IMG/VR virus record: IMGVR_UViG_2548877009_000004
Origin: a virus
Taxonomy: Duplodnaviria; Heunggongvirae; Uroviricota; Caudoviricetes
Direction: 5' to 3' (one strand)
DNA length: 20,274 bases
Part shown: one piece after another, positions 1-18,852 of the stretch
Layout of the letters: each line of letters opens with the position of its first letter
Position numbering within the stretch: position 1 is the stretch's first letter
Made by a program: the position numbers and the translations under genes
Notes under the pieces: model-generated
What the model saw: only the letters and a program-made list of their open reading frames with translations
Database searches by the model: none
What the model was told of the DNA's origin: nothing

Positions 1-210
1 GTTGCCGCTGGTCGTCGTCGGTTGCACCTCCAAGCAGTCTGTCAGTCAGTGCGTGAAGCCACCACCGCCTCCGGCGTGGATAATGCAGCCTCCCCCCGAC
101 TGGCAGACACCGCTGAACGGGATTATTTCACCCTCCGGGAACGACTGGTAATGATGCAGGCCCAACTTGAAGGTGCTCAGCAATACATAACCGAGCAGTG
201 TTTAAAGTAA
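1..210 (+). CDS. Rz: i-spanin Rz, C-terminal part (5' end lies outside the window)
   Basis: Frame 1 is open from base 1 and translates to VAAGRRRLHLQAVCQSVREATTASGVDNAASPRLADTAERDYFTLRERL..., which closely matches the C-terminus of lambda Rz as I recall it. Stop codon at 208-210. Confidence 0.88.
   Translation, partial: VAAGRRRLHLQAVCQSVREATTASGVDNAASPRLADTAERDYFTLRERLVMMQAQLEGAQQYITEQCLK
2..151 (+). CDS. Rz1: o-spanin Rz1, embedded in the +1 frame of Rz (5' end outside the window)
   Basis: Frame 2 from base 2 translates to LPLVVVGCTSKQSVSQCVKPPPPPAWIMQPPPDWQTPLNGIISPSGNDW, ending at TAA 149-151. The proline-rich sequence matches lambda Rz1. It is missing from the ORF track because its start lies upstream of the window. 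Confidence 0.85.
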   Translation: MPLVVVGCTSKQSVSQCVKPPPPPAWIMQPPPDWQTPLNGIISPSGNDW

Positions 211-265
211 AATCTTAACTACAATATGATTCATTTTGATGATTGTTTCATAAGGAACAGTGAAG

Positions 266-310
266 TAAGATCTAAGAGGAGTTAAATTTTATACAGTATA
301 ATCATAATAT
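266..310 (+). promoter_or_regulatory. Possible sigma70 promoter for the trkG moron
   Basis: AT-rich intergenic region after Rz with TATAAT at 297-302 and CATAAT at 303-308, about 40-50 nt upstream of the trkG start. The -35 element is weak (ttaaat at 282-287). Hexamer match only. Confidence 0.3.
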
Positions 311-347
311 TGCAGCAAGGTGGTTATAATTGAAAGAATATTTAGAT

Positions 348-1805
348 ATGAATACATCTCATGTAAGAGTTGTTACTCATATGTGTGGGTTCCTGGTTTG
401 GCTCTATAGTCTTTCAATGTTGCCACCAATGGTTGTAGCATTGTTTTATAAAGAAAAAAGCCTGTTCGTTTTCTTTATAACTTTCGTTATATTTTTTTGC
501 ATTGGTGGCGGAGCGTGGTATACAACTAAGAAATCTGGCATTCAATTACGTACCCGTGATGGGTTTATTATAATTGTAATGTTTTGGATTTTGTTTTCTG
601 TTATTAGTGCATTCCCTTTATGGATTGACTCAGAACTTAATTTAACGTTCATTGATGCTCTGTTTGAAGGGGTTTCTGGAATAACAACAACAGGAGCAAC
701 TGTAATTGATGATGTTAGTTCATTACCTCGGGCATATTTGTACTATCGGTCACAGTTAAATTTTATAGGTGGTTTAGGAGTTATTGTTCTGGCGGTTGCT
801 GTATTGCCATTATTGGGTATTGGTGGTGCAAAGCTTTATCAGTCAGAAATGCCGGGGCCATTTAAGGATGACAAACTCACTCCCCGCCTGGCCGATACGT
901 CACGGACACTGTGGATAACTTATTCTTTATTAGGTATTGCTTGTATTGTCTGTTATAGACTTGCAGGAATGCCTTTGTTTGATGCTATTTGTCACGGGAT
1001 TTCCACAGTTTCGCTTGGTGGTTTCTCAACTCATAGCGAGAGTATCGGATATTTTAATAACTATTTGGTTGAGCTGGTGGCTGGTTCTTTTTCCCTGCTA
1101 TCGGCTTTCAACTTCACTCTTTGGTATATTGTTATTAGCAGGAAAACGATAAAACCTTTAATCAGAGATATTGAACTTCGTTTCTTTCTGTTAATAGCCT
1201 TAGGGGTGATCATTGTTACCTCTTTCCAGGTCTGGCATATAGGTATGTATGACTTGCATGGAAGTTTTATTCATTCGTTTTTTCTTGCCAGCTCCATGCT
1301 CACTGATAATGGTTTAGCTACGCAGGATTATGCAAGTTGGCCCACGCACACGATAGTGTTTTTGCTGTTGTCAAGTTTCTTTGGGGGATGTATAGGTTCA
1401 ACTTGTGGTGGAATTAAGTCACTTCGATTTCTTATACTTTTAAAACAAAGCAAACACGAGATAAATCAGCTTTCTCATCCCAGAGCGTTGTTGAGTGTAA
1501 ATGTAGGAGGGAAGATAGTTACAGATCGTGTAATGAGGTCTGTATGGAGTTTCTTTTTTCTTTATACTCTCTTCACGGTGTTTTTTATACTGGTGTTAAA
1601 TGGTATGGGATATGATTTTCTTACATCATTTGCAACAGTGGCTGCATGTATTAATAATATGGGATTAGGTTTTGGGGCTACTGCATCGTCATTCGGAGTG
1701 CTTAATGACATTGCAAAATGTTTAATGTGCATAGCTATGATTCTTGGTCGCCTTGAAATTTATCCTGTTATTATATTGTTTTCAGGTTTTTTTTGGCGCT
1801 CCTAA
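348..1805 (+). CDS. trkG: TrkG/TrkH-family Trk-system potassium uptake protein (prophage moron)
   Basis: The 485-aa product begins MNTSHVRVVTHMCGFLVWLYSL... and is a polytopic membrane protein. Family motifs are present (GITTTGAT, LYQSEMPGPFKDDK, GGCIGSTCGGIK, C-terminal GRLEIYPVIILF). N-terminus matches my recall of E. coli TrkG. The gene is conspicuously AT-rich compared with flanking phage genes. An in-frame TTG at 330 with AGGTGG 5 nt upstream is an alternative start. Confidence 0.9.
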   Translation: MNTSHVRVVTHMCGFLVWLYSLSMLPPMVVALFYKEKSLFVFFITFVIFFCIGGGAWYTTKKSGIQLRTRDGFIIIVMFWILFSVISAFPLWIDSELNLTFIDALFEGVSGITTTGATVIDDVSSLPRAYLYYRSQLNFIGGLGVIVLAVAVLPLLGIGGAKLYQSEMPGPFKDDKLTPRLADTSRTLWITYSLLGIACIVCYRLAGMPLFDAICHGISTVSLGGFSTHSESIGYFNNYLVELVAGSFSLLSAFNFTLWYIVISRKTIKPLIRDIELRFFLLIALGVIIVTSFQVWHIGMYDLHGSFIHSFFLASSMLTDNGLATQDYASWPTHTIVFLLLSSFFGGCIGSTCGGIKSLRFLILLKQSKHEINQLSHPRALLSVNVGGKIVTDRVMRSVWSFFFLYTLFTVFFILVLNGMGYDFLTSFATVAACINNMGLGFGATASSFGVLNDIAKCLMCIAMILGRLEIYPVIILFSGFFWRS

Positions 1806-1891
1806 TATATGGCTGATTTATAATTGTGAGTTTAATATTATGTTGACTCACTCATTGATCCAATACCTAACTTTACCAGCAACCCCTCCGT

Positions 1892-1925
1892 CCCCAGTAG
1901 CACTGGCTGCTGGGGTGCGTTTTAT
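1892..1925 (+). terminator. Possible intrinsic terminator downstream of trkG
   Basis: Inverted repeat ccccag(1892-1897)/ctgggg(1910-1915) with inner ccagt/actgg pairing, followed by tgcgttttatt. Stem/loop geometry is imperfect. Confidence 0.35.
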
Positions 1926-1942
1926 TCATAAAGCAAGGCTGT

Positions 1943-2737
1943 ATGAGCGAGAAATTAAAGATAGTCTATCGCCCATTACAAGAATTGTCACCGTATGCGC
2001 ACAACGCCAGGACGCACAGCCCTGAGCAGGTGGCACAACTGGTAGAAAGTATTAAGCAATTCGGCTGGACTAATCCGGTGCTGATTGACGAAAAGGGCGA
2101 AATTATTGCGGGTCACGGTCGTGTTATGGCGGCTGAAATGCTCAAAATGGATTCTGTTCCGGTCATTGTTCTGTCTGGCCTGACGGATGAGCAGAAAAAG
2201 GCGTACCGCCTGGCAGATAATCGCCTGCCGATGAATGCTGGCTGGGATGAAGATCTGTTGCGGATGGAGCTGTCGGACCTAATCAATGCTGATTTTGATG
2301 TCTCCCTGACAGGCTTCATCCCGACAGAAATTGATGAACTGTTGACGGATGTTTTGCCCGGTACAGGAAATGAGGAGGAGCCGTATACGACGAAAATTGA
2401 TACGCCTGTTTATGAGCCGTCGGGCGGTAAACCGGATATCAGTGAACTGTACGACGATACGAAAACTCAGGAGCTGATCAGCCGGATACGTTCGGCGTCC
2501 CTTGAGCCTGATATTGAGAAATTCCTCCTGTGTGCGGCAGAACGTCACACGGTGTTTAATTTCAGCAGAATTGCGGACTATTACGCTCACGCCCCCTCTG
2601 AAATTCAGTGCCTTTTCGAGGAGTCGGCGCTGGTGATCATTGATTATCAGCAGGCTATTGAAAATGGATTTGTCCGAATGACGCAGCGCATGGTGGAGAT
2701 CATGCATGGCGGGGAGGAGGAGGAGGAATATGCGTGA
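1943..2737 (+). CDS. ParB/Srx-like nuclease-domain protein (phage accessory protein)
   Basis: The N-terminal ~90 aa show the ParB N-domain pattern (IVYRPLQELSPYAHNARTHSPEQVAQLVESIKQFGWTNPVLIDEKGEIIAGHGRVMAAEMLKMDSVPVIVL). The C-terminus is an acidic tail (GGEEEEEYA). AAGG lies upstream of ATG 1943. Confidence 0.75.
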   Translation: MSEKLKIVYRPLQELSPYAHNARTHSPEQVAQLVESIKQFGWTNPVLIDEKGEIIAGHGRVMAAEMLKMDSVPVIVLSGLTDEQKKAYRLADNRLPMNAGWDEDLLRMELSDLINADFDVSLTGFIPTEIDELLTDVLPGTGNEEEPYTTKIDTPVYEPSGGKPDISELYDDTKTQELISRIRSASLEPDIEKFLLCAAERHTVFNFSRIADYYAHAPSEIQCLFEESALVIIDYQQAIENGFVRMTQRMVEIMHGGEEEEEYA

Positions 2738-3662
2738 TGATTTTTGCGCCTTTATTCTGACTCACGGGCGACCGGACAAAGTTCTGACTTACCGGACGTT
2801 GCGTCGTGCTGGCTATACCGGGAAAATTTTTATCGTTGTTGATGATGAAGATAAGACACGGCATCAGTACATGGCTGAATTTGGTGAACAGGTGCTGGTA
2901 TTTTCCAAAGCCGATATTGCCAGTCGTTTTGACGAAGCCGATAATTTTGGTGATCGCCGCTCAATTTTTTACGCCCGTAATGCCTGTTTCGACCTGGCAA
3001 AACTGGTCGGGTGTAAATACTTCATTCAGCTCGATGATGATTATCACGAGTTCCAGTTTCGGGTGGATCGCAACTATGACCAGGCCTATTTCCCGATAAG
3101 GAAACTGGATGCGATCCTTTCTGAAATGCTGGCGTATTACGAATCAATACCCGCGCTTTCCATCGCTATGTCGCAGGGCGGGGATTTTCTTGGTGACAAT
3201 GGCGGCCATGCTTCGTGGGTGAAACGCAAGGCAATGAACAGCTTTATCTGTTCGGTTGATCGACCGTTCTCATTCATGGGGCGCATTAACGAGGATGTGA
3301 ATACGTACACGAATCTCGGTCGCTGTGGTGAATTGTTTATGACGATCGGTGCTGTCCAGTTAGGGCAGAAACAGACGCAGAAAAACAGCGGCGGAATGAC
3401 CGAGCTGTATCTGGATTCCGGAACCTACGTTAAAAGTTTTTACTCCGTCATGTATTCGCCGTCGTGCGTAAAAATCTCACTGATGGGTGCCAGCCATAAA
3501 CGCATTCACCATCAGGTCACCTGGAACAACGCTGCAGTAAAAATCCTTCACGAAAAATACAGGAAGAAGACACCCTGCATATCAATGGGGGTGACAAATG
3601 ATTCCGTATTCGAAAGTCGAGTCTCTGGCAGCGTGCCGGATGACTGCACAACAAATCGCTGA
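2730..3662 (+). CDS. Soluble GT-A-fold (GT2-like) glycosyltransferase-like protein, function unknown
   Basis: Motif layout matches GT-A enzymes: FILTHGRPDK (cf. IIPTYNR), IFIVVDDEDK (cf. IVVDDGS), ARNACFDLAKLVGCKYFIQLDDDY (ARN...A + DxD). No hydrophobic transmembrane stretch is evident. The ORF track starts it at 2706; I prefer ATG 2730 because a perfect GGAGGAGGAGGA Shine-Dalgarno precedes it. Confidence 0.6.
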   Translation: MRDDFCAFILTHGRPDKVLTYRTLRRAGYTGKIFIVVDDEDKTRHQYMAEFGEQVLVFSKADIASRFDEADNFGDRRSIFYARNACFDLAKLVGCKYFIQLDDDYHEFQFRVDRNYDQAYFPIRKLDAILSEMLAYYESIPALSIAMSQGGDFLGDNGGHASWVKRKAMNSFICSVDRPFSFMGRINEDVNTYTNLGRCGELFMTIGAVQLGQKQTQKNSGGMTELYLDSGTYVKSFYSVMYSPSCVKISLMGASHKRIHHQVTWNNAAVKILHEKYRKKTPCISMGVTNDSVFESRVSGSVPDDCTTNR

Positions 3663-3849
3663 CGTTCTGGATGTTGATCTGAACCGACTGAAAGAAAATC
3701 GGGAAGCAATGACAGATTTTTATGCGGCCATCCGTAAGGGCAGAGCGAAAGGTGAAGCCGAGTTACGAGCGGCATTGTTTAAGCTTGCCAGAAAAGGGGA
3801 TGCCTTTGCTCTGCGCGAACTACTCAGGGTGGATAAAAATCAGGACTAA
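3598..3849 (+). CDS. Small putative DNA-binding protein (helix-turn-helix-like), possible packaging accessory
   Basis: 83-aa ORF with a GGGGGTGA Shine-Dalgarno 3-6 nt before ATG 3598. An HTH-like segment (TAQQIADVLDVDLNRLKEN) is present. It lies immediately upstream of terS and overlaps the 3' end of the preceding gene by 65 nt. Confidence 0.5.
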   Translation: MIPYSKVESLAACRMTAQQIADVLDVDLNRLKENREAMTDFYAAIRKGRAKGEAELRAALFKLARKGDAFALRELLRVDKNQD

Positions 3850-3852
3850 CTG

Positions 3853-4947
3853 ATGAGCAGACCGGACTGGGGGGCGTTGCAGCAGGAGTATATTGCTGAA
3901 TACACCCGCTCCGGTATATCTCCGGTGGCATGGTGTGAAGCAAGGGGACTGAACTACGCAACAGCCCGTCGTTACATCAAAAAAACTCCGAAAAATGCGC
4001 AGAAAGAAATGCGCAAAACTGCGCAAAAAAGTGCGCGAAAAAAAACTGCGCAGACTGCGCAAAGGCAGAACGGAAAATCTCAGAAAAAAAAGGCTGTATC
4101 CGATGCACTCCTGATTGAGGGGGACACGGAAGAAATTTCGTTCTGCCCCGATGAATTCGGTATTTCTGACCAGCAGGCAAAATTCGCCATGTTGGTTGCT
4201 CAGGGGAAAAAGCCGACAGAGGCATACCGACTGGCTGGTTATGAGGGGCAAGGTGCGACAGCTAACAGCAACGCCAGCCGTATGCTTAGAAATGCCAGGG
4301 TTTATCGTGCTATCAGCTACTTCCGCAATCAGTACCAGAAACGCTATACCGCAGACCTGGATTTACTGGTGAGCCAGTTGATGGCCATTGTCCAGGCCGA
4401 CCCCAATCAGTTGGCACAATTTCGCCGTGTTAACTGCCGTTATTGCTGGGGCGAGAATCATCTCTACCAGTGGCGTGATATTGCAGAATTCGATAAGGCT
4501 GCGGCACAGGCCTCCAGAGATGGTAAACCCGAGCCGGAATATGGAGGCCTCGGCTTTGTTGATAACGCCATACCCAATCCTGATTGCCCGAAGTGCTGCG
4601 GTGAGGGAACAGGACAGCTTTATATGGCTGATACCACACTGCTTGATGGGGATGCGCGGCAATTATATGCAGGGTCAAAGCTCGGAAAATACGGTGTTGA
4701 GATCCTGCTGGAGGATAAGGCTGCCGCCCGGCGTGAATTGTTGCGTTTGCTTTCTGCTGGCGGGGCATTATGTGCAGATAAGCGGCTACAGGAACTGGAA
4801 ATTGAACGGCGCAGAATAGAGAACCAGAAGCTGCGCAAAGAGATCGAAACGGTGGAGGATAATGAACATCCCCAGCCTGTGGCGATCAATATTAATGTGG
4901 TTGATGCCAGATTAAGGAGTGATGAAGATGATCTCTCCGACGCTTAA
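3853..4947 (+). CDS. Terminase small subunit (extended form with basic linker and Cys-rich zinc-ribbon-like region)
   Basis: N-terminal HTH (ISPVAWCEARGLNYATARRYIKK) and a small-terminase-like core (QQAKFAMLVAQGKKPTEAYRLAGYEGQGATANSNASRMLRNARVYRAISYF). CxxC ... CxxCC cluster (CRYCWGENH ... CPKCCGEG). Sits directly upstream of the large terminase. Confidence 0.78.
   Translation: MSRPDWGALQQEYIAEYTRSGISPVAWCEARGLNYATARRYIKKTPKNAQKEMRKTAQKSARKKTAQTAQRQNGKSQKKKAVSDALLIEGDTEEISFCPDEFGISDQQAKFAMLVAQGKKPTEAYRLAGYEGQGATANSNASRMLRNARVYRAISYFRNQYQKRYTADLDLLVSQLMAIVQADPNQLAQFRRVNCRYCWGENHLYQWRDIAEFDKAAAQASRDGKPEPEYGGLGFVDNAIPNPDCPKCCGEGTGQLYMADTTLLDGDARQLYAGSKLGKYGVEILLEDKAAARRELLRLLSAGGALCADKRLQELEIERRRIENQKLRKEIETVEDNEHPQPVAININVVDARLRSDEDDLSDA
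3996..4061 (+). repeat. Six direct TGCGCR repeats phased by A-tracts inside terS
   Basis: TGCGCA/TGCGCG at 3996, 4010, 4020, 4032, 4047 and 4056, spaced 9-15 nt, each followed by an A-run. This stretch encodes the basic low-complexity linker AQKEMRKTAQKSARKKTAQTAQRQ. Confidence 0.7.
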
Positions 4948-6229
4948 TGTGCCTCAGGCGCGATTTCTTTCAATGCCCCATAAATTTAAAGCCTATATTG
5001 CTGGTTTTGGCTCGGGCAAAACATGGGTTGGGTGTGGCGGCATATGCAAGGGGATTTGGGAGCATCCAGGTATAAATCAGGGATATTTTGCGCCAACGTA
5101 TCCCCAAATTCGCGATATTTTTTACCCTACAGTGGAAGAAGTTGCTGCTGACTGGGGATTGAACGTAAAAATTAATGAGGGAAATAAAGAGGTTCACTTT
5201 TATTACGGACGCCAGTATCGGGGAACCACTATCTGCAGATCGATGGAGAAGCCACAAACGATCGTCGGTTTCAAAATTGGTAATGCGCTGGTGGATGAAC
5301 TGGACATTTTGCCGAAGGAAAAAGCCAGAACGGCGTGGCGCAAGATAATTGCGCGTATGCGTTATAAGATTGATGGACTTCGCAACGGTATTGACGTTAC
5401 AACCACGCCGGAAGGATTCAAATTTGTCTACGAGCAGTTTGTTAAAGCCGTGCGTGAAAAAACAGAGCTGGCCTCACTGTATGGTCTGGTGCAGGCATCT
5501 ACTTTCGATAATGAAAAGAACCTGCCAGCAGATTACATTCCTTCACTTCTTGAATCATACCCTCCAGAGCTGATTAAAGCCTATCTTCTAGGACGGTTTA
5601 CTAACCTGACAAGTGGTACTGTTTACCATCAGTTTGACCGGAAACTGAATAATTGCGAAGAAGTGGAGCAGCCAGGGGAGCCGATTTATATTGGGATGGA
5701 TTTTAACGTTGGAAAGATGGCGGGAATCGTCCATGTGCTGCGTTTGGGGCTTCCATGTGCGGTAACTGAAATCATCAATGCCTACGATACGCCGGATATG
5801 ATCCGCATCATTAAAGAACGCTTCTGGCTGTATGATGGGAATGATTACCGGAAAGTGAGGGAAATTTATATTTATCCAGATGCTTCCGGGGATTCCAGAA
5901 AATCAAGTAACGCAAGTACGACGGATATAGCCCAGCTTAAGCAGGCTGGATTTAACGTTGTGGTGAACAGCTCGAACCCGCCAGTAAAAGATCGCGTTAA
6001 CTCAATGAATGCAATGTTCTGCAATGCCAATGGTGAGCGTCGCTATAAAGTTAATGTGAAGCGTTGCCCGTTATATGCCGAATCTCTGGAGCAACAGGTC
6101 TGGGATGAGAAGGGGGAGCCTGATAAAAAATCTGGCAATGATCACCCGAATGATGCCGGAGGTTATTTCATCGTTAAGCAATTCCCTATTGTCAAACCGA
6201 CCGGAAGAGTCACATCACTTCGGATTTAA
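4928..6229 (+). CDS. Terminase large subunit (ATPase/nuclease)
   Basis: Walker A-like motif AGFGSGKT near the N-terminus. Size (~433 aa) and position after terS fit. AAGGAG at 4914-4919 lies 8 nt before ATG 4928; the ORF track starts at GTG 4919. Confidence 0.88.
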   Translation: MISPTLNVPQARFLSMPHKFKAYIAGFGSGKTWVGCGGICKGIWEHPGINQGYFAPTYPQIRDIFYPTVEEVAADWGLNVKINEGNKEVHFYYGRQYRGTTICRSMEKPQTIVGFKIGNALVDELDILPKEKARTAWRKIIARMRYKIDGLRNGIDVTTTPEGFKFVYEQFVKAVREKTELASLYGLVQASTFDNEKNLPADYIPSLLESYPPELIKAYLLGRFTNLTSGTVYHQFDRKLNNCEEVEQPGEPIYIGMDFNVGKMAGIVHVLRLGLPCAVTEIINAYDTPDMIRIIKERFWLYDGNDYRKVREIYIYPDASGDSRKSSNASTTDIAQLKQAGFNVVVNSSNPPVKDRVNSMNAMFCNANGERRYKVNVKRCPLYAESLEQQVWDEKGEPDKKSGNDHPNDAGGYFIVKQFPIVKPTGRVTSLRI

Positions 6230-6231
6230 TT

Positions 6232-7638
6232 ATGGCTGATATATCAACACCCAACCTCGACTATAACGATATGCTGGAGGCGTGGGATATTAACGACGCA
6301 CTGATGGGCGGTACGCTTGAAATGCGCAGGCAGGGGGAAAATTATCTCCCAAAATGGCCTAACGAAGATGAAGACGCTTATAAAAAACGCCTGTCTGTGG
6401 CTACGCTACTTCCTGTGTATGAAGAAAGCATCAAGCAAAATATTGGGCGCATATTTGCAGAGCCGACAGTATTGAGTGAGGAAACGCCGGCAAAAATCAG
6501 GGAATATGCAGAAAATATCGACATGGAGGGGAGCCGACTGGATGTGTGGGCGCAGCAATTTTTCAGCCTCGCATTTCAGTATGGTGTGGCACATGCGCTG
6601 GTGGACTATCCACGAACGGATATGAAAGAGATTCGGACAAAAGCCGATGAAAACGCGACCGGTGGTCGTCCGTACGTTACGATGCTGAATCCACGCCAGG
6701 TTATTGGATGGAAATCGAAAGTTGAAAAAGGGAAAGTTGTTCTCACTGATTTGCGTATAAAAGAGGTCATCATTATTGATGGTGATGATTTCGGGCAGAA
6801 GAAGGTGGAGCAGATCCGCCATATTATGCCCCGTCGAGTTGAAATTTATCGACGTAGCGAAGGCACTAATGGCGAATCTGTCTGGACGCTTCATGAGTCA
6901 TGGAATACCAGCCGTGATGATATTCCTCTGGTAACACTGTACACGAAGAAAACAGGATTTATGCGTGGTACACCGCCATTGCTTAATCTTGGCTTGCTGA
7001 ATATCAAGCACTGGCAAAGCCAGAGCGAGCAGGACAATATTCTTCATGTTGCCCGCGTTCCATTGCTGGTGGCCTACGGGCTGGACAGGAATGAAGAACT
7101 GACGGTTGGTGCATCCACCGCTACGATTTTTGAGGACAGAACAAAAAATGGCCTCGAATATGTTGAACATAGTGGCGCAGCGATAGAATCTGGCGAAACA
7201 TCACTTGAGAAGCTGGAAAATCAGATGCGTCATGCCGGCGCTAAACTTCTGCGTGCTGAAAATACATCCACCAAATCTGTTGATCAGACTAATGAAGAGC
7301 GAATGCAGGAAAACTCGCCGCTTTATACAATGGCGAACTCCCTCGAAGATGCCCTCGATAATATTCTCCAGATAATGGCGGAATGGATCGGAGAGAGTTG
7401 CGGTGGCAATGTGGATGTGCGCACTGAACTGGATGTATCTGCCCAGGTGTTTGACTCATCCTCCGCGCTGGCTGTTCAGTCATTGCGTCAGGGCGGTGAT
7501 ATACGTCAGATTGATGCGGTTCGGGTGTTGCAGGCGTTGAAATTTATCGATCAGGATTCCCGTCCAGAGGAAGTGATCGATGAATTAAAAAATCAGAGTG
7601 TAATGCTGATGGAAATCAATGATGCAAACCGTGAATGA
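6232..7638 (+). CDS. Portal protein
   Basis: 468-aa acidic protein immediately after the large terminase and translationally coupled to it (TAA 6227-6229, ATG 6232). Size and position are typical of portal proteins. Confidence 0.78.
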   Translation: MADISTPNLDYNDMLEAWDINDALMGGTLEMRRQGENYLPKWPNEDEDAYKKRLSVATLLPVYEESIKQNIGRIFAEPTVLSEETPAKIREYAENIDMEGSRLDVWAQQFFSLAFQYGVAHALVDYPRTDMKEIRTKADENATGGRPYVTMLNPRQVIGWKSKVEKGKVVLTDLRIKEVIIIDGDDFGQKKVEQIRHIMPRRVEIYRRSEGTNGESVWTLHESWNTSRDDIPLVTLYTKKTGFMRGTPPLLNLGLLNIKHWQSQSEQDNILHVARVPLLVAYGLDRNEELTVGASTATIFEDRTKNGLEYVEHSGAAIESGETSLEKLENQMRHAGAKLLRAENTSTKSVDQTNEERMQENSPLYTMANSLEDALDNILQIMAEWIGESCGGNVDVRTELDVSAQVFDSSSALAVQSLRQGGDIRQIDAVRVLQALKFIDQDSRPEEVIDELKNQSVMLMEINDANRE

Positions 7639-8734
7639 ACGGCTGCGTGATGAATCAATTGCTCATGCAGTCTGGATATCCCGCTATAGCACTGGCGTGG
7701 CTGCCAGAATGGTGAAAATACTGAATGACAGCGATGCGGAACTTACTGCTCGCCTGCTGATAGCACTGGACAGCCTCGATCCAGGTAGTTTTACCGTTAA
7801 GCGCCTGGAGTCACTTCTGGCGAGCGTCAGAGAGGTTAACCGCACTGCTATTAACAGCATGTTTACCAGTCTCTCCAGAGAGCTGAACGAGCTGGCAATT
7901 TATGAGGCTGGTTATCAGTTAAGTCTGTTTGATTCTATGCTACCTGATTTTGTTGCTGATGTTCACCCTCTGGTTGGTATCTCTCCTGATGCACTTTATG
8001 CCGCTGCAATGGCGCGACCATTCCAGGGACGACTGCTCAGTGAGTGGGCCTCAGATCTTGAGGCGGATCGGCTCAGACGCATAACAAATACAGTGCGTCA
8101 GGGTTTTTTGCTGGGGGATACCAATGAGCAGATCGCAAGAAAAATTCGGGGACATGTCAGTAAGGGATTTCAGGATGGTGCATTGCAGATGAGCCGGGCT
8201 AATGCGGCCAGCATTGCAAAAACAGCGGTTGGACATCTTGCTGCTACTGCCCGTGAGAGTTTTGCCAGCGCGAATAATGATTTGATTAAGGGTAAGCAAT
8301 GGTTATCAACGCTTGATAATCGTACTACGCCACAATGTCGAATCAGGGATCGCCTCAAATATACGCTGAATAATAAACCTGTAGGTCACAGCGTGCCTTA
8401 TTTGCAGGGGCCGGGAAAAATTCATTTCTGCTGCCGCTCAACGGAAACGTTCATTCTGAAATCAGCGAAGGAACTGGGTATTGATGTTCGCGATATTTCC
8501 CCGGCTGAGCGGGCCAGCATGGATGGCGTGGTGGCCGGAGATACAACCTACAGGGAATGGTTTTTGCGTCAGCCTTACACCAGACAAAAACAGATTGTGG
8601 GGGAAACCCGAGCAAAGCTGATTCGGGATGGTGGTATGTCGCCAGATGAATTTTACACCGATAAAGGCGAATGGCTGACGCTGAAGCAGCTCCGTGAGCG
8701 TGATGCACAGGTATTCAGAAAAGCAGGGATTTAA
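7619..8734 (+). CDS. Head morphogenesis / minor capsid protein (SPP1 gp7 / Mu F-like)
   Basis: 371-aa ORF overlapping the portal stop by 20 nt. Conserved position between portal and scaffold; call by synteny and size rather than a recognised motif. Confidence 0.65.
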   Translation: MMQTVNERLRDESIAHAVWISRYSTGVAARMVKILNDSDAELTARLLIALDSLDPGSFTVKRLESLLASVREVNRTAINSMFTSLSRELNELAIYEAGYQLSLFDSMLPDFVADVHPLVGISPDALYAAAMARPFQGRLLSEWASDLEADRLRRITNTVRQGFLLGDTNEQIARKIRGHVSKGFQDGALQMSRANAASIAKTAVGHLAATARESFASANNDLIKGKQWLSTLDNRTTPQCRIRDRLKYTLNNKPVGHSVPYLQGPGKIHFCCRSTETFILKSAKELGIDVRDISPAERASMDGVVAGDTTYREWFLRQPYTRQKQIVGETRAKLIRDGGMSPDEFYTDKGEWLTLKQLRERDAQVFRKAGI

Positions 8735-8753
8735 ATAAATCATTTATTACAAC

Positions 8754-8779
8754 AGGCTACCTTCGGGTGGCCTTTTTTA
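8754..8779 (+). terminator. Intrinsic terminator (UUCG tetraloop) after the head morphogenesis gene
   Basis: aggctacc (8754-8761), ttcg loop, ggtggcct (8766-8773): an 8-bp stem with one G-U pair, followed by a run of six T. Confidence 0.65.
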
Positions 8780-8838
8780 TTGCTGCGATCCGGATGGTGA
8801 GCAGCGTAACTGTCGGAAGACTTAAACCAGGTACTAAT

Positions 8839-9603
8839 ATGAAACTGAAAACGGTCGAGATTAACGGAAAACAATACGCAGAAATTGATACTGCTGGCCT
8901 GCCAGTTTATGTGCACGACGATGGTAAAGAAATTGGCTTCGATGCACCGCTGGCGACAAAAAAAATTACAGAGCTTAATGGCGAGGCAAAAAATCATCGC
9001 CTGGCTAAAGAAGCTGCAGAGGAAAAACTGGCTAAGTTTGCCGCTATCGAAGACCCGAAGAAGGCGATCGAGGCACTGGAAATGCTGTCAAAAATCGACC
9101 AGAAAAAGCTGCTCGATGCGGGACAGGTTGACCAGGTTAAGGCAGAAATTACGAAAAATTTTCAGCAGCAATTAGATGAAGAAAAGCAACGCTCTCAGAT
9201 GCTGGAGAAGCAGCTTTACGATTCTATGATTGGCGGTAGTTTTGCGGGTTCAAAATATATTGCCGATAAAATTGCGATCCCGGCAGATTTATTACAAGCC
9301 CGCTTCGGGCAGGCATTCAAAGTGGAAGAAGGGAGGATCGTTGCTTATGACGCTTCCGGCAACAAAATTTATTCCCGCGCGAAGCCTGGCGAACTGGCGC
9401 AGTTTGATGAGGCGCTGGAGTTCCTTGTCGAAAATTACCCTCAGAAAGACTACATCCTGAAAGCCAGTGGCAACAATGGCGGCGGCTCCCGTCCGACACA
9501 GCATGATATTGGTCAGAAAACGATGAAACGCTCTGCTTTTGATGCACTGGATGTTGCAGGTAAGCAAAACGCATTGAAAGACGGTATCACAATCGTTGAT
9601 TAA
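8839..9603 (+). CDS. Capsid scaffolding protein
   Basis: Begins MKLKTVEINGKQYAEIDTAG...; highly charged, helix-rich composition (EEKLAKFAAIEDPKKAIEALEMLSKIDQKKLLDAG). Lies directly before the major capsid gene. The longer track ORF (start 8767) would run through the upstream terminator, so ATG 8839 is preferred. Confidence 0.65.
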   Translation: MKLKTVEINGKQYAEIDTAGLPVYVHDDGKEIGFDAPLATKKITELNGEAKNHRLAKEAAEEKLAKFAAIEDPKKAIEALEMLSKIDQKKLLDAGQVDQVKAEITKNFQQQLDEEKQRSQMLEKQLYDSMIGGSFAGSKYIADKIAIPADLLQARFGQAFKVEEGRIVAYDASGNKIYSRAKPGELAQFDEALEFLVENYPQKDYILKASGNNGGGSRPTQHDIGQKTMKRSAFDALDVAGKQNALKDGITIVD

Positions 9604-9701
9604 CACATTTGTCAGCTTCCGGATGGGAGCTGGTGTCAGGGCTGGATAGCTCATTACTCCATCTATTCACAATTACGCAAATTTTTAAGGAATATTTAAT
9701 T

Positions 9702-10841
9702 ATGGCTGGAAATACCCTGACCGGGTTGATCCCGACTATTTATACCGCCCTGGATGTTGTATCCCGTGAGCAGGTAGGTTTTATCCCTGCGGTAGCAAAA
9801 AACGCAAAAGCTGACGCCGCAGCAAAAGATCAGACGGTAACCGCGCCAGTTGCGCCTGAGGCGAAAACCGAAGATATCGTACCGGGGCCGTCAGCTCCGA
9901 ATACCGGTGATCAAAATATTGGCACTGTTGATGTAAAAATTACTAAATCCAAAATGGCACCGGTTAAATGGAATGGTGAAGAACAACTGGCTCTTGGCCC
10001 TTCAGGGACTTACAACACCATTCTGGCTGATCAGTTCAAGCAGGCTTTTCGCGCCCTTGCAAACGAGGTTGAGGCTGATCTTGGTGCGTTGTATTTCGGT
10101 GCTTCCCGCGCCGTGGGAACCGCAGGGACAACGCCGTTTGGTGTTAAAGATGATCTTTCTGATGCTGCTCTGGCTCGTCAGGTTCTGGAGGATAACGGCG
10201 CACCGACAACCGATCTGCAGATGGTGCTTGGCTCCACTGCCATTGCTAATTTGCGCGGAAAACAGTCTGTATTGTTTAAAGTGAATGAATCCGGCACTGA
10301 ACAGCTACTGCGTGAGGGCGTGTTGGGGCGTCTGGAGGGATTCAATATTCACAGTTCGGCAGGTGTGAAACGAGCGCCAAAGGTTGCTGCAACTGGTTAT
10401 CTCGTGAATGGAGAGAAAAAAGAAGGCGATGTTCTTATTTCCATTGATACTGGTTCGGGGAGTATTTCTGCAGGTCAGATTGTTACGTTCGCTGGTGATC
10501 CGAATCAGTATGTTGTGGCAGCAGCGACCAGCAATCTGATTACTCTTGCAGCGCCCGGACTGCGTCAGGATCTGGCCGATGATACTGCCATCACAGTTGT
10601 TGGGGCCTTTACGGCAAATATGGCGTTTGATCGCAACGCGTTTCTGCTGGCATCCCGTACTCCGGCAATGCCGGAAGGTGGCGATAATGCTGATGATGTA
10701 ATGAATGTTACGGACCCGATTTCAGGGATTACGTTCCAGATTGCACTGTATCGTCAGTATCGCCAGGTGCGCTATGAAGTTGGACTGGCATGGGGTGTTT
10801 CATCAGTGAAGCCGGCACATGGTTGTCTGATTCTTGGTTAA
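9702..10841 (+). CDS. Major capsid protein
   Basis: 379 aa from ATG 9702, with TAAGGA 10 nt upstream. Follows the scaffold gene and is followed by a strong terminator. The track's TTG 9609 start has no Shine-Dalgarno. Confidence 0.78.
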   Translation: MAGNTLTGLIPTIYTALDVVSREQVGFIPAVAKNAKADAAAKDQTVTAPVAPEAKTEDIVPGPSAPNTGDQNIGTVDVKITKSKMAPVKWNGEEQLALGPSGTYNTILADQFKQAFRALANEVEADLGALYFGASRAVGTAGTTPFGVKDDLSDAALARQVLEDNGAPTTDLQMVLGSTAIANLRGKQSVLFKVNESGTEQLLREGVLGRLEGFNIHSSAGVKRAPKVAATGYLVNGEKKEGDVLISIDTGSGSISAGQIVTFAGDPNQYVVAAATSNLITLAAPGLRQDLADDTAITVVGAFTANMAFDRNAFLLASRTPAMPEGGDNADDVMNVTDPISGITFQIALYRQYRQVRYEVGLAWGVSSVKPAHGCLILG

Positions 10842-10851
10842 ACATTCAAAC

Positions 10852-10871
10852 GGGGCTTCGGCCCCATTTTT
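10852..10871 (+). terminator. Intrinsic terminator (UUCG tetraloop) after the major capsid gene
   Basis: ggggc ttcg gcccc perfect 5-bp GC stem followed by atttttaat. Confidence 0.7.
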
Positions 10872-10883
10872 AATGGGGGGCAT

Positions 10884-11060
10884 ATGGCCGGATTAACTAA
10901 AGAGCAAAGAGCACAGCGTGAAGCCGCACAAAAAACGCAAATTGAGTTAGTGGTTATGGTGACCGATTATCAGATGTTTCCCGGCGCACCAACTATCGCT
11001 AATGTTCATCCTGATGAAGTTGACAACTGGAAGGCTATGGGCTGGAAAACTCAGGAGTAA
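10884..11060 (+). CDS. Small hypothetical protein (58 aa), not in the ORF track
   Basis: ATG 10884 preceded by GGGGGG; translates to MAGLTKEQRAQREAAQKTQIELVVMVTDYQMFPGAPTIANVHPDEVDNWKAMGWKTQE. Its stop (11058-11060) lies within the AGGAG Shine-Dalgarno region of the next gene. Below the track's apparent 60-aa cut-off. Confidence 0.35.
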   Translation: MAGLTKEQRAQREAAQKTQIELVVMVTDYQMFPGAPTIANVHPDEVDNWKAMGWKTQE

Positions 11061-11063
11061 CAC

Positions 11064-11459
11064 ATGATCACTTACGTGACCTGTGATGACGTTGATAATG
11101 CGTTTGGGAACGCCTGGACGAGTGAGAACGCTAAAAATAAAGCTGTTTTAATGGCTAATGCCTGGCTTAATGGCTTCAACCTGAAAATTAACCCATCCCG
11201 TATTCCGGAAGAGGTAAAACTTGCGGGAGCATATGCAGCCAGAATTGCCTCATTCGGTAAGTTGTTTCAGCAGAAAAATGATTCTGGCGTTGTTATCAGT
11301 AAAGCCGTGTCGGCTGACGGGGTCAGTGTATCGAAATCATTTTCTGAGTTGCCAGCAAACAGCACTGCATTGCTTGAACCCGATTTACAGCTTGCGATAG
11401 CACTGCTGAAACCGTACGGACTTAGTCGCTCACAAGTCAGGGTTGTGAGGGGGGGATAA
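11064..11459 (+). CDS. Head-tail connector (gp6-like) protein
   Basis: 131-aa ORF immediately after the capsid genes, AGGAG before ATG 11064. Call by synteny. Confidence 0.55.
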   Translation: MITYVTCDDVDNAFGNAWTSENAKNKAVLMANAWLNGFNLKINPSRIPEEVKLAGAYAARIASFGKLFQQKNDSGVVISKAVSADGVSVSKSFSELPANSTALLEPDLQLAIALLKPYGLSRSQVRVVRGG

Positions 11460-11842
11460 TGGGGCTTCGTGAAGAGATTCAGTCAGAGGTTGCCGCTGCT
11501 TTTGATGAGGATTTAGCGGACGCCGTGAGTGATTTTTCTGGTTCTTACGTTACGCACCGGCACTGGGATCCTGTGACGGAAACTGGCGGCGAATCCACCG
11601 CAATCTATACCGGGCGAGGCGTGTTGACACGTTATAAGCTGGGCAGAATTGATGGGATTAATATTTTGCATGGTGACCTTAAATTAACCGCTCTGGTATG
11701 CGAGGTTACGGATAAACCAGCTGTCGACCATATTATTGAGATTTATGATCCTGTATCAAGGCAGTTACAACGATACGAGGTAATTACAGCAAGTGTAGAG
11801 CCTTCCGCATCAGTTTACTCTATCCAGTTAAGGAGAGCGTAA
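11459..11842 (+). CDS. Head closure / head-tail joining protein
   Basis: 127-aa ORF whose ATG overlaps the previous stop (TAATGG). Call by synteny. Confidence 0.5.
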   Translation: MGLREEIQSEVAAAFDEDLADAVSDFSGSYVTHRHWDPVTETGGESTAIYTGRGVLTRYKLGRIDGINILHGDLKLTALVCEVTDKPAVDHIIEIYDPVSRQLQRYEVITASVEPSASVYSIQLRRA

Positions 11843-12223
11843 ATGGCAAAGGCATGGGATATAGAACCGTCAATATTTGCCGGGATGATTGAGGAAGATG
11901 TAGGGCTGAAGATTCGCTACATCGCTATTCAGATTCTTACTGCTATTGATATTGCTGCTCCGGTTGATACCGGACGTTTCAGAAATAACAACCTGGTGTC
12001 GTTACAGCATCCCGATTTTGGTATATCTGATAACGTGGATCCGAACGGTACGATTGCTGTTCAGCGTGGGATCGGGGTTATTTCGAAAGCTGCAAATTAC
12101 GGAGTTATTTATATCCAGAATAACCTTCCTTATGCAGAGGCTCTTGAAAACGGTCATTCACAACAAGCGCCAACTGGCGTGTATGCCAACGCTTTTCATG
12201 GTGTTTTACAGGCTTACAAATGA
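11843..12223 (+). CDS. Tail component (HK97 gp10-like / neck protein)
   Basis: 126-aa ORF; TAAATG coupling to the previous gene and AGGAG upstream. Call by synteny. Confidence 0.5.
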   Translation: MAKAWDIEPSIFAGMIEEDVGLKIRYIAIQILTAIDIAAPVDTGRFRNNNLVSLQHPDFGISDNVDPNGTIAVQRGIGVISKAANYGVIYIQNNLPYAEALENGHSQQAPTGVYANAFHGVLQAYK

Positions 12224-12612
12224 CGTTTACTGAAATCAGAAATACGGTTATTTCCAGAATGACGGCACAGACGATTATTGATGGAAAAGACGTATTGTAT
12301 CCGAACGCGCCAACGTTCGATCCTTCCGGTAAGTTAATCTGGGCGCGGTTAAGTAATATTCCCGGGCAGGCTGGAGTTAATGAAATTGGCGCGGGGCCGA
12401 TTGTTTATCGCACGGGGATAATCATTATTCAGTTATTTGTCCCCGCAGGTTCTGGTTCAAAACTCATTACTGAGACAGCCGATAAATTGCGGGAACTGTT
12501 TGAGTTTCAGGATGACGATCGTCTCAGTTACCAGGCTGTTTCCTCAATAGCCGTTGGCGAAAAGAATGGCTGGTTCCAGCTTAATCTTCAAATTCCATAT
12601 CGCGCGCTCTAG
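12220..12612 (+). CDS. Tail completion / tail terminator protein (gpU-like position)
   Basis: 130-aa ORF with ATGA overlap to the previous gene, immediately upstream of the major tail gene. Confidence 0.5.
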   Translation: MTFTEIRNTVISRMTAQTIIDGKDVLYPNAPTFDPSGKLIWARLSNIPGQAGVNEIGAGPIVYRTGIIIIQLFVPAGSGSKLITETADKLRELFEFQDDDRLSYQAVSSIAVGEKNGWFQLNLQIPYRAL

Positions 12613-12638
12613 CGCAATTAATGACATAGGAGGCTCCT

Positions 12639-13601
12639 GTGAGTTCAGGTGCAAAGGTTATCTCGGCATTTATCCGGGAGACGGTTGCAGGCACTACGCC
12701 AGCAAGTGGTGACTGGAGTTTATTAAAACGCACAAGCTGGGGAGTAAAACCCACCCAGAATAAAGGCGAAAATAATGAGATTGGTGGCTCCCGGATGGCT
12801 CAGGGGGCGACGCCTGGCACTGTGGATGTCGGCGGTGATGTTGGTACCAAATTTCGCTGGGGTCAACATGATGATTTTCTTGCATCCTGTTTCGGCGCGG
12901 AATGGTCAGGCGATTCTCTGACAATGGGGAATGAGCGAATAACATTTTCTCTGGCGACCTATGCGTCCGATGTCGGAATTGCCTCTGTCGTCAGAGGAGC
13001 GCAGGTTGGCTCATGGAAAATGCAGATCCCTAACGACGGCGATATTACAGCGACCGTAACCTTTGCCGGACTGGACTGGGAATCAAAGGCCGATGATACG
13101 AATTTTATCAAAGGCGAACCTGTGGATAGTGCAGGAAAGCTACGTTATTCGTTTAAGGAGGTTTCAGCAGTAAGCCTGAATGGTGTTGCCGGAGGTAACG
13201 GTTTTTGTATCGACAGTTTTGATATTCAGTTCGATAACAAACTCCAGACACAGCGTTGTATCGGGACTGGCTCGCCTTATGCAGGAGCAAATATTCCGAC
13301 TACTTTTACACCGTCCGGTACGGTGACGCTTTCATGGTCTAAAGCCGCGTGGGAAATCTGGAGTAAAACACTGACTGGAGAAACAGTTCCGATCAGCTTC
13401 ACGCTTTCGAATGGAGAGGGGGCATACACTTTCAGTTTCCCGAAGGTTCAGGTGTCAGGTGAATGGCCTGATGGGGGTAATAGCGACATTATCCAGGTTC
13501 AATTGAGCATTACCGCAGCAGATGAAGCACCTACGATAACCAGAAAAAAAAATTCCCCGGCTGCCGTGATCGCAAAAGCCAGTGCTGAGGCGATTAGTTG
13601 A
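12639..13601 (+). CDS. Major tail (tube) protein
   Basis: 320-aa ORF starting at GTG 12639 with AGGAGG 6 nt upstream. Gly/Ser/Thr-rich, beta-type composition. Sits directly before the G/GT chaperone pair. Confidence 0.65.
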   Translation: MSSGAKVISAFIRETVAGTTPASGDWSLLKRTSWGVKPTQNKGENNEIGGSRMAQGATPGTVDVGGDVGTKFRWGQHDDFLASCFGAEWSGDSLTMGNERITFSLATYASDVGIASVVRGAQVGSWKMQIPNDGDITATVTFAGLDWESKADDTNFIKGEPVDSAGKLRYSFKEVSAVSLNGVAGGNGFCIDSFDIQFDNKLQTQRCIGTGSPYAGANIPTTFTPSGTVTLSWSKAAWEIWSKTLTGETVPISFTLSNGEGAYTFSFPKVQVSGEWPDGGNSDIIQVQLSITAADEAPTITRKKNSPAAVIAKASAEAIS

Positions 13602-13649
13602 TTTTCCGTTATTCCTCCTGTGGTACTGCCCTACAGGGGGACGCATTGA

Positions 13650-14111
13650 ATGAGGTTATGGATGTTTATTCTTAATCAGAAAATTATCATTGGTGGAGAA
13701 CGCTGGTTTACGCCAATGAAGGACTTAAAACCTGTAGACGGGTTAAAACTGTTGGTGGCAAGCAGCGATAACGATCAGTATCGCTCCCGTAATGCATTAA
13801 TCCGTCGCCACATTGAGAAAATGGATGCCAGTTTGCACGTCGGAACGAAGGAGTTTGATATTTCAAAGGTTTCCGAGGTGGATTCTGTTGATGATTTACT
13901 CATTGATAATGCCGCTCGTTATCTGCTGAAAGACTGGAAAGGGGTTGGTGAACTGGTTAATGGTGTTGAGGTTGCACTGGAATATACGGCAGAACGAGGG
14001 ATCGCGCTGCTTAAGCAGAATCCAGAGTTGTACTGGCAGATCCTTGCAGAAGCAGCCAGCATCGCCCAGGGTAAAGAGCAGCAGAAGCAGGATACGATAA
14101 AAAAGCCATAG
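13650..14111 (+). CDS. Tail assembly chaperone (lambda gpG analogue)
   Basis: 153-aa acidic protein between the major tail and tape measure genes. It ends ...QDTIKKP with the slippery heptamer A AAA AAG inside its last codons. AGGGGGA lies upstream of ATG 13650. Confidence 0.7.
   Translation: MRLWMFILNQKIIIGGERWFTPMKDLKPVDGLKLLVASSDNDQYRSRNALIRRHIEKMDASLHVGTKEFDISKVSEVDSVDDLLIDNAARYLLKDWKGVGELVNGVEVALEYTAERGIALLKQNPELYWQILAEAASIAQGKEQQKQDTIKKP
14099..14105 (+). other. Programmed -1 ribosomal frameshift slippery site (A AAA AAG)
   Basis: Heptamer X XXY YYZ in the G frame, 2 codons before the G stop. The -1 frame is open from 14075 to 14419. Confidence 0.65.
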
Positions 14112-14419
14112 CTGCCCAGCGGTGGTTATCGGAGTTCGGGGGAGAAAGGGGGGAAAAGGCAAGATGGAAGCGAGAAAAACTCAGGTTGCCACCGATACCG
14201 GAACCAGAAATAGACCCGGTGCTTAAGGAGTTGTTGTACGCCTATTCGGTAATATCCCGTGCCCGACGTTATGCTGGAATGGCTGGGGTGCCTTTGCCTT
14301 TATCTCTGACAGAGATAAATGAATATTTAGCCACTCATCCGGTATTGATTGAGCGCGATGAATTTGAAGCAGTGATCTTTGCACTGGATGACCAGTATTT
14401 TCAGGAGCAGTGTGTGTAG
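14105..14419 (+). CDS. Tail assembly chaperone frameshift extension (lambda gpT analogue; expressed as a G-T fusion)
   Basis: The -1 frame relative to G is open from 14075 and ends at TAG 14417-14419. The track lists it only from TTG 14186 (77 aa); read from the slip site it adds about 104 aa to G. Confidence 0.65.
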   Translation, partial: AIAAQRWLSEFGGERGEKARWKREKLRLPPIPEPEIDPVLKELLYAYSVISRARRYAGMAGVPLPLSLTEINEYLATHPVLIERDEFEAVIFALDDQYFQEQCV

Positions 14420-14539
14420 TTGTTAATTACGTACACTCTGTTACAGAGATGTGATGGTGTCTTTAATTAAATCGATGATGCTCCTGGAGAAAAGCATTGC
14501 GTGGCCTCGTAATCGCTATATCTACTATTATGTCGCCTG

Positions 14540-14566
14540 AAACCCACTTCGCGGTGGGTTTTTTGT
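14540..14566 (+). terminator. Intrinsic terminator upstream of the tape measure gene
   Basis: aaacccac (14540-14547), ttcgcg loop, gtgggttt (14554-14561), then a T-run; AGGAG and ATG 14585 follow. Confidence 0.6.
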
Positions 14567-14584
14567 TGTCAGGAGTTTTAATAA

Positions 14585-17500: not shown

Positions 17501-17818
17501 AACGGTATTTATGATTCCCCGCAATTTTTTGCTTTTGCAAAAGGGGCTGGTGTTTTTGGTGAGGCTGGACCGGAAGCCATTATGCCATTAACACGAACTT
17601 CCGATGGTTCTCTTGGTGTCAGAGCTATTAATAGTAAAAGTGGTAATGGAGGCGGAGATATTACCTATGCCCCTGTATACCAAATCACTATTCAAAATGA
17701 CGGCCAGAATGGAGAGATTGGCCCTCAGGCAATAAAAGCACTTATGGGGATGGTTGATCAGCGGGTGCAGGGCAATCTGTTAAATATGCGACGTGATGGG
17801 GGAATATTAAGTGGCTAA
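14585..17818 (+). CDS. Tail tape measure protein
   Basis: 1077 aa, long helical Gln/Ala/Glu-rich sequence. Three N-terminal tandem repeats. A hydrophobic, Gly-rich central segment ([36 protein letters not shown]). Located between GT and M. Confidence 0.9.
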
Positions 17819-18149
17819 TACGGAAGAATTTCACTGGTTACCAGAGGATGGAATGAAAACAGAAAATAAACCATCGATAAAAACTGTAAGATTTGGCGAT
17901 GGTTATGAGCAACGAAGTCCAAATGGACTTAATCATTCTCTGCGCGTTTTCACCTGTGATTTCAAAGTTGAGGCGAATGAACGTGATTCATTTGAAAAAT
18001 TTTTAGCCCGGCATGAAGGCTATAAATCTTTTTTTTGGCGCCCGCCGGGTATTAACAGAAAAATCAGAGTGGTGTGTCGAACGTGGTCAGCGACAGAACA
18101 TATCACCTATACCGATTTTTCGTGTCAGTTTGACGAAGTGGTGATCTGA
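17811..18149 (+). CDS. M: Minor tail protein M
   Basis: Contains [16 protein letters not shown] (lambda M has VRFGDGYSQRAPAGLN) and ends ...FDEVVI (lambda ...FEQVVN). GTG start overlaps the tape measure stop; ATG 17853 is an alternative start. Confidence 0.8.
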
Positions 18150-18847: not shown

Positions 18848-18852
18848 ATCCC

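Follow-up and report, generated by a model that had tools for sequence, protein, structure and literature searches.

The window, the whole 20,274-nt stretch of DNA analysed here (Caudoviricetes record IMGVR_UViG_2548877009_000004), opens within the lysis genes of a phage late region. The interval flagged for study, 211-1940, holds a single long open reading frame, at 330-1805 on the plus strand, encoding the membrane subunit of a Trk-type potassium transporter. The gene and the features around it are the following:

1-210 (stop codon 208-210), plus strand: 3' part of the spanin gene Rz, cut by the window start (Pfam Phage_lysis, 7.7e-23)
ending at 151, plus strand: Rz1 lipoprotein reading frame embedded in Rz, also cut by the window start, with a readable LVVVGC lipobox
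201-230, plus strand: candidate promoter TTTAAA-18-TATGAT (looser hexamer scan)
211-329, plus strand: AT-rich spacer (about 25% GC) with candidate sigma-70 promoters (GC content and hexamer scans)
281-286 and 303-308, plus strand: candidate -35 GTTAAA and -10 CATAAT, separated by 16 nt (looser hexamer scan)
297-302, plus strand: candidate -10 TATAAT (looser hexamer scan)
317-323, plus strand: Shine-Dalgarno sequence AAGGTGG, 6 nt before a TTG at 330 (read from the sequence)
330-1805, plus strand: trkG, membrane subunit of the Trk K+ transport system, an intact reading frame with the annotated ATG at 348
1826-1851, plus strand: AT-rich hairpin just past the trkG stop codon (computed fold)
1892-1926, plus strand: candidate intrinsic terminator, a GC-rich 10-bp stem CCCCAGTAGC/GCTGCTGGGG at 1892-1915 followed by the U-run UGCGUUUUAUU
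1943-2737, plus strand: full-length ynaK, 264 aa, with a ParB/Srx N-terminal domain (domain search and comparison with K-12)
2706-3662, plus strand: TAGT/GREB1-like glycosyltransferase gene (Pfam PF20691, 6.1e-35; phrog_842, 1.5e-103), not part of the trkG unit
between the glycosyltransferase gene and terS, plus strand: a small open reading frame
3853-4947, plus strand: terS (small terminase subunit), the start of the packaging and head block
4919-6229, plus strand: terL (large terminase subunit)

Portal, capsid and tail genes follow terL on the same strand as trkG.

The product of the 330-1805 reading frame is a cellular-type K+ transporter of the TrkH/TrkG family, as had been proposed from the DNA alone. 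It matches the Pfam TrkH profile (PF02386) over its full length (E = 1.5e-144; 482.7 bits for a cut-off of 27; profile positions 3-500 of 502) and the TrkH-family subfamily model TIGR00933 of NCBIfam (415 bits; cut-off 331), and scores 447 bits, under the cut-off of 866, with the NCBIfam equivalog model for TrkH. A best match to chromosomal trkH rather than trkG would have spoken against the original prediction; the protein is identical to TrkG of E. coli K-12 MG1655 at 484 of 485 residues (99.8%), with three nucleotide differences in the coding sequence, versus 40.7% identity to K-12 TrkH. The sole residue difference, L365 in the window and F365 in K-12, falls at a position occupied by L, F, Y or A in other members of the TrkG clade. 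The translated sequence contains the motifs of four pore loops, with their selectivity-filter glycines (GITTTGAT, SLGGFS, TDNGLAT and NNMGLGF). Alignment of the third loop with TrkH places a serine of TrkH opposite D327, the aspartate found five residues after the third-loop glycine both in the window protein and across the TrkG clade. The nearest solved structures are those of Vibrio TrkH (3PJZ and 4J9U).

Translation from the annotated ATG at 348 yields a protein of 485 aa and translation from the TTG at 330 one of 491 aa. Homologues from E. fergusonii, Citrobacter and Pectobacterium have a Shine-Dalgarno sequence and a TTG at the corresponding position, and a conserved TTG so preceded suggests that the true product is the 491-aa form. 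If so, the annotated K-12 TrkG is short of six N-terminal residues, and the probable TTG start would slightly revise the annotation of a K-12 gene that has received much study.

The flanks of the gene identify the element that carries it. Window positions 1-2196 align to the Rac prophage of K-12 at 99.6% identity and positions 13760-15519 at 99.9%, in agreement with the suggestion that the element is Rac-like and shares the trkG arrangement of K-12 Rac. What K-12 lacks is the intervening 11.5 kb, window 2197-13759, comprising the 3' part of ynaK and the glycosyltransferase, terminase, portal, capsid and tail genes. The deletion, flanked by ynaK and ydaY and with only 2 bp of microhomology at its junction, begins after 2196 and cuts K-12 ynaK to 87 aa. 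Because it lies between two matching segments, the window is, on alignment evidence, a full-length Rac-type prophage, and trkG with its flanks marks it as such. Near-identical records present the complete Rac layout, ttcA-int-xis-ralR-recT-recE-racC-kil-repressor region (racR)-replication genes-Q-S-R-Rz-trkG-ParB-like-glycosyltransferase-terminase-head-tail. Matching records have Rac-type early regions with int, recET, racC, kilR, sieB and racR-type genes next to ttcA, and it is in these records that integration at ttcA is seen, the attachment sites being located beyond the ends of the window.

As had been claimed, trkG directly follows Rz/Rz1, which end at 210 and 151, respectively. Its placement between the lysis cassette and the head genes is right on the upstream side and needs qualifying on the other, where two non-structural genes, ynaK and the glycosyltransferase gene, intervene and the terminase and head genes begin only at 3853. 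The rzpD/rzoD genes of DLP12 are nearly identical to the window Rz/Rz1 up to about position 135, and similarity is gone after the stop codon.

trkG is clearly foreign in base composition. At 38.0% GC (32.1% at third codon positions, GC3) it stands well below the phage genes around it (GC 45-51%, GC3 43-56%; 46-51% and 46-56% for the next five genes), which is the composition looked for in a moron. The spacer at 211-347 has 25.5% GC and the Rz fragment 55%; downstream, GC is 50% in ynaK, 48% in the glycosyltransferase gene, 51% in terS, 46% in terL and 48% in the portal gene, and the whole of 211-1940 averages 37.3% versus 47.3% in 1941-18000. In 100-nt windows GC is 0.53 before the Rz stop codon and 0.24 after it, returning to about 0.5 near 1860, so that the AT-rich region, real as it is, ends at about 1860 and not at 1940 as first delimited. 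Codon use is distinctive too: of the 18 window genes trkG has the lowest GC3 and the most ATA codons for its length (17), and no other gene of 260 codons or more departs as far from the pooled phage genes in its choice of synonymous codons. The original prediction, which stood or fell with GC content and codon usage differing from those of the flanking genes, is upheld on both counts.

The spacer upstream of trkG had also been credited with promoter-like hexamers of its own. Candidates are indeed present, but their number is what chance provides in DNA so rich in AT: a consensus scan of positions 1-2800 found five, for 6.4 +/- 2.4 expected from shuffled sequence. A looser scan returned several weak candidates with poor -35 elements, among which sequence alone gives no ranking; with the hexamer count at chance and the -35 elements poor, the promoter cannot be placed from the sequence. 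Window 32-466, the whole upstream spacer included, is identical to K-12, for which experimental information exists. There, a SELEX peak of the RpoD holoenzyme identified a constitutive promoter at trkG, one of very few inside the prophages of K-12, and the authors concluded that trkG came into Rac with its promoter (PMC5811629). The K-12 promoter drives a lux reporter, trkG transcription is raised in hns and hns stpA mutants, silencing being only partial, and expression is comparable to that of trkH (PMC9898762) and takes place in the uninduced state (PMC5811629, PMC9898762). Over-expression of SlyA increases trkG 3.8-fold, and the gene belongs to the H-NS regulon (PMC5797941). The AT-rich spacer at 211-329 is a likely target of H-NS. 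We note that the high-affinity H-NS motif TCGATAAATT is not enriched (31 occurrences for 24.5 expected) and forms no cluster upstream of trkG, and that an Rfam scan of positions 1-4000 gave no matches.

On the downstream side, the possible terminator noted earlier is represented by the hairpin at 1892-1915 and its U-run. The stem folds at -22.5 kcal/mol (z = -4.5), a value equalled by none of 200 shuffled sequences, and together with the U-run it makes 1892-1926 a credible intrinsic terminator as judged from its predicted fold. This element is situated beyond the low-GC tract and is not included in the sequence that Rac trkG shares with E. fergusonii trkG; lying as it does in DNA of normal GC content, it may derive from the phage backbone and not from the imported unit.

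A survey of 5426 complete E. coli genomes located segment 211-1940 in 1551 of them, with an identity of 99% or higher in nearly every case; 1542 of these carriers have at least 80% of it, and some copies are partial. Escherichia ruysiae and Shigella flexneri have trkG in their Rac-type prophages as well, and the segment occurs in 10 deposited phage records and on 15 plasmids (E. coli, Citrobacter, Klebsiella and Enterobacter). Of the plasmid copies, the one inspected lies within a small prophage remnant adjoining IS26. E. albertii has a partial allele, 87% identical, in a different prophage-like setting, and in strain W444 the gene carries an internal stop. A published comparison of strains places trkG and recE as the best-conserved genes of Rac (PMC5700373).

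Beyond these near-identical copies, database searches retrieved TrkG homologues of 60-79% amino acid identity from E. fergusonii, Citrobacter, Pectobacterium, Pantoea, Enterobacter, Leclercia, Cronobacter, Buttiauxella, Serratia and Xenorhabdus. The copies of E. fergusonii, Citrobacter and Pectobacterium, whose contexts were checked, have non-phage chromosomal settings, and genes of the clade are carried on plasmids in Cronobacter, Pluralibacter and Raoultella. Since every sampled member is 39-43% identical to TrkH, TrkG is, to judge by these comparisons, an old paralogous clade within the Enterobacterales and did not arise recently from E. coli trkH; the same identities rule out a recent duplication of the latter gene. 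At the DNA level, similarity between Rac trkG and the E. fergusonii copy is confined to 325-1809, so that the spacer before the gene and the hairpin after it belong to the Rac context alone. Between the two genes dN is 0.15 and dS is saturated, indicative of purifying selection. Acquisition by aberrant excision was considered as well and ruled out, the gene lying in the interior of the prophage map.

The vacant site that would document an insertion was sought widely. Complete E. coli genomes, E. ruysiae, Shigella, phage records and GTDB species genomes yielded no Rac-type late region from which trkG alone is missing, nor a close relative in which the two genes that flank trkG adjoin each other. 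Strain W444, the one candidate for such an empty site, was ruled out: it has an IS66 insertion between trkG and ynaK. With no trkG-less Rac late region at hand, the insertion event and its exact boundaries are deduced from base composition and from the point, after the Rz stop codon, at which similarity to lambda and DLP12 is lost. One relative, a prophage of strain ETEC1701, shares the terS module from window position 3522 onward at 92% identity; about 380 bp separate its own Rz from this module, and trkG, ynaK and the glycosyltransferase gene are all missing from it. Its layout defines 211 to about 3521 as a variable region between lysis and packaging genes, within which two compositionally distinct parts can be told apart, the trkG island and the pair of ParB-like and glycosyltransferase genes. 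Besides composition, the promoter known from K-12 experiments, the terminator-like hairpin and the slot after Rz would suit a moron. The designation of trkG as a lysogenic-conversion moron is a reasonable label drawn from K-12 experiments and composition; the search turned up no sister phage free of trkG. A literature search on trkG as a moron yielded nothing relevant, and one on TAGT/ParB yielded papers on partition ParB only.

The residence of trkG in Rac has reportedly been known since 1991. That this arrangement is not new, as had been anticipated, is plain from the published work (PMC9898762, PMC5811629, PMC5700373), in which trkG of Rac is already described; foreign composition, promoter, H-NS control and Na+-dependent transport all having been published, the feature is a known one. 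In particular, the Rac location and the contrast in GC content between trkG (38%) and trkH (53%) are stated explicitly, and K-12 TrkG was found to need Na+ for K+ uptake and to take up Na+ as well, with D327 implicated, to work with TrkA (and SapD), and to be able to replace TrkH (PMC9898762). All functional data on trkG come from the defective Rac of K-12, and trkA lies outside the window.

We consider it highly probable that the segment represents a horizontally acquired K+ transporter gene that has its own low constitutive promoter damped by H-NS, supports Na+-dependent uptake through TrkA, is terminated at the downstream hairpin and is read through under the control of Q. This reading starts from the identity, composition and position of the gene and from the hairpin as determined here. 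Horizontal transfer would have brought the low-GC segment into the late operon, where it occupies the accessory slot that immediately follows Rz/Rz1 and shares its strand with Q, S, R, Rz and the terminase genes. In the lysogen, if the K-12 literature on promoter, H-NS control and transport applies, trkG would be transcribed from its weak constitutive sigma-70 promoter in the spacer under partial repression by H-NS and StpA, and TrkG together with host TrkA (and SapD) would mediate Na+-dependent K+ uptake accompanied by Na+ entry, providing a second, partly redundant Trk route. We infer that uninduced transcription probably ends at the 1892-1926 hairpin and that, upon induction, Q-modified RNA polymerase would have to read through both trkG and this terminator to reach the packaging genes.

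The main rival view of the same arrangement is that trkG is kept mainly for the phage, with high late expression after induction and an influx of K+ and Na+ that helps to make late proteins, to energise the membrane or to time lysis, or that compensates for leakage of K+. The strand and position of the gene, between Rz and terS and downstream of Q, are those of a late gene; Rac-type late regions without it were not seen in about 1600 E. coli genomes, E. ruysiae or Shigella, and the E. albertii allele shows a related gene in a second prophage-like context. Yet trkG is intact in K-12, where the head and tail genes are deleted and a lytic cycle is impossible, and it is kept in small plasmid-borne prophage remnants; its retention in both settings points to selection at the level of the host. 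In K-12 it also has a constitutive promoter of its own and is expressed without induction (PMC5811629, PMC9898762), and we see only a slim chance that benefit to the phage is the main reason for its maintenance. We likewise regard it as unlikely that trkG is a fixed, phage-selected part of the Rac-type late operon instead of optional host cargo, strong expression after induction tuning K+ and Na+ for late expression or lysis timing, a proposal that would explain the absence of trkG-less Rac-type late regions.

Low GC content, rare codons (the 17 ATA codons), a TTG start, repression by H-NS (PMC9898762) and the occasional inactivated or partial copy, such as the W444 gene with its internal stop, could be taken to mean that trkG is a passenger without function, silent or in decay, foreign DNA that H-NS keeps switched off and that is turning into a pseudogene. 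Such decay is difficult to reconcile with the near-complete, nearly uniform copies of the region found in 1542 of the 1551 carriers or with a dN far below dS relative to E. fergusonii. It is largely refuted by the transport assays performed on K-12 TrkG, which differs from the window protein by one residue, transports K+ and complements the loss of TrkH (PMC9898762); we hold it to be very improbable. The notion that the segment is ordinary chromosomal DNA, a core gene of the trkH type lying beside a prophage end, has in its favor that genes of this family are normally chromosomal and that the E. fergusonii and Pectobacterium homologues of TrkG have non-phage settings. With same-strand phage genes on both sides (Rz/Rz1 upstream; ParB-like, terminase, portal, capsid and tail genes downstream), only 41% identity to TrkH, and a place deep within the prophage map, well away from attL and attR, its probability appears negligible, and we take it as refuted on the predicted gene order.

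Of the known systems, the closest is trkG of K-12 itself (b1363, in the cryptic Rac prophage), which is 99.6% identical in DNA to the window, both spacers included, and has the same neighbors, rzpR/rzoR upstream and ynaK downstream. The difference is that the prophage of the window keeps the 11.5 kb that K-12 Rac lost, making visible the position of trkG relative to an intact late operon; the window displays the ancestral layout around the gene and should be useful for testing any role of trkG for the phage. TrkH (E. coli b3849; Vibrio parahaemolyticus 3PJZ/4J9U) shares with the trkG product its Pfam family, its length and the four pore-loop motifs. It differs in sequence (about 41% identity), in the serine that replaces D327 and in the composition of its gene (53% GC, and 63% GC3 in K-12, versus 38% GC for trkG), and the dependence on Na+ and permeability to Na+ of TrkG are absent from it (PMC9898762). 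TrkG-clade genes of E. fergusonii, Citrobacter, Pectobacterium, Serratia and Xenorhabdus and of pESA3-type plasmids of Cronobacter have in common with Rac TrkG the D327 residue, the TTG start with its Shine-Dalgarno sequence and 60-79% identity, but they are located on chromosomes or plasmids outside any phage late operon and do not share the spacers and terminator of Rac. The slot itself has a counterpart in lambda bor and DLP12 borD, accessory genes that also lie right after Rz and, like trkG, are expressed from the prophage. However, bor encodes a small lipoprotein and is oppositely oriented, whereas trkG is a 1.5-kb transporter gene on the strand of the late operon, so that late transcription would have to pass through it.

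The 11.5-kb deletion that made Rac, the cryptic prophage of E. coli K-12, defective left ynaK with its 5' portion alone, fused to the ydaY region; the microhomology at the junction is only ~2 bp (AA).

Window 2196/2197 and 13759/13760: breakpoints of the K-12 Rac deletion
Window 317-350: candidate trkG start region (Shine-Dalgarno sequence and TTG)
NZ_CP055012.1, 1586-9695: plasmid trkG copy and prophage remnant (Klebsiella quasipneumoniae IncA plasmid)
E. albertii contig, 1-6700: divergent trkG allele
Window 18150-20274: high-GC tail-tip segment (lambda-like L, K, I and J homologues)
Window 1943-3662: ynaK and TAGT/GREB1-like glycosyltransferase gene pair, just 5' of terS

TrkG is probably 491 rather than 485 amino acids long. 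A TTG at position 330, in frame with the annotated ATG and 18 nt 5' of it, is preceded by the Shine-Dalgarno sequence AAGGTGG, and both elements are also kept in the homologues from E. fergusonii, Citrobacter and Pectobacterium; the codon at the position of the K-12 ATG is CTG in Citrobacter and ATT in Pectobacterium. The called length of many homologues is 491 amino acids, and the PHROG profile has 491 positions.

Conjugative plasmids also carry the gene, at 99.5% identity, in Klebsiella, Citrobacter, Enterobacter and E. coli. The single plasmid copy examined (NZ_CP055012.1) is part of a short remnant of a prophage, made up of int, xis, Rz, trkG and a tail-fibre assembly gene and adjoining IS26. 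A divergent allele in E. albertii (87% amino acid identity over a partial ORF; GC content 39.5%) has as neighbours a gene for an NleF-type effector and one for a lambda-type phosphatase, and this setting is a second, distinct prophage-like context.

GC content, 44-50% in the head and tail-shaft genes, jumps to 58-65% where the lambda-like tail-tip genes are reached (window 18150-20274), and this step is a mosaic joint. An ETEC1701 prophage (6995-8208 of its record) shares the small ORF and terS with window 3522-4737 at 92% identity; its lysis cassette is unrelated, and genes for an ADP-ribosyltransferase and a subtilase-B toxin lie upstream. Since the similarity begins at 3522, a mosaic boundary is placed at ~3522, within the 3'-terminal part of the ORF for the glycosyltransferase.

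This ORF overlaps ynaK, which is full-length in the window and encodes a 264-amino acid ParB/Srx-domain protein. The glycosyltransferase matches PF20691 and phrog_842, the latter named 'beta-glucosyl-HMC-alpha-glucosyltransferase'; no TET/JBP gene was seen within the window. The two genes may represent a DNA-glycosylation module of Rac-type phages. A ParB/Srx-domain and glycosyltransferase pair is similarly annotated in Lactobacillus phage phi jlb1.
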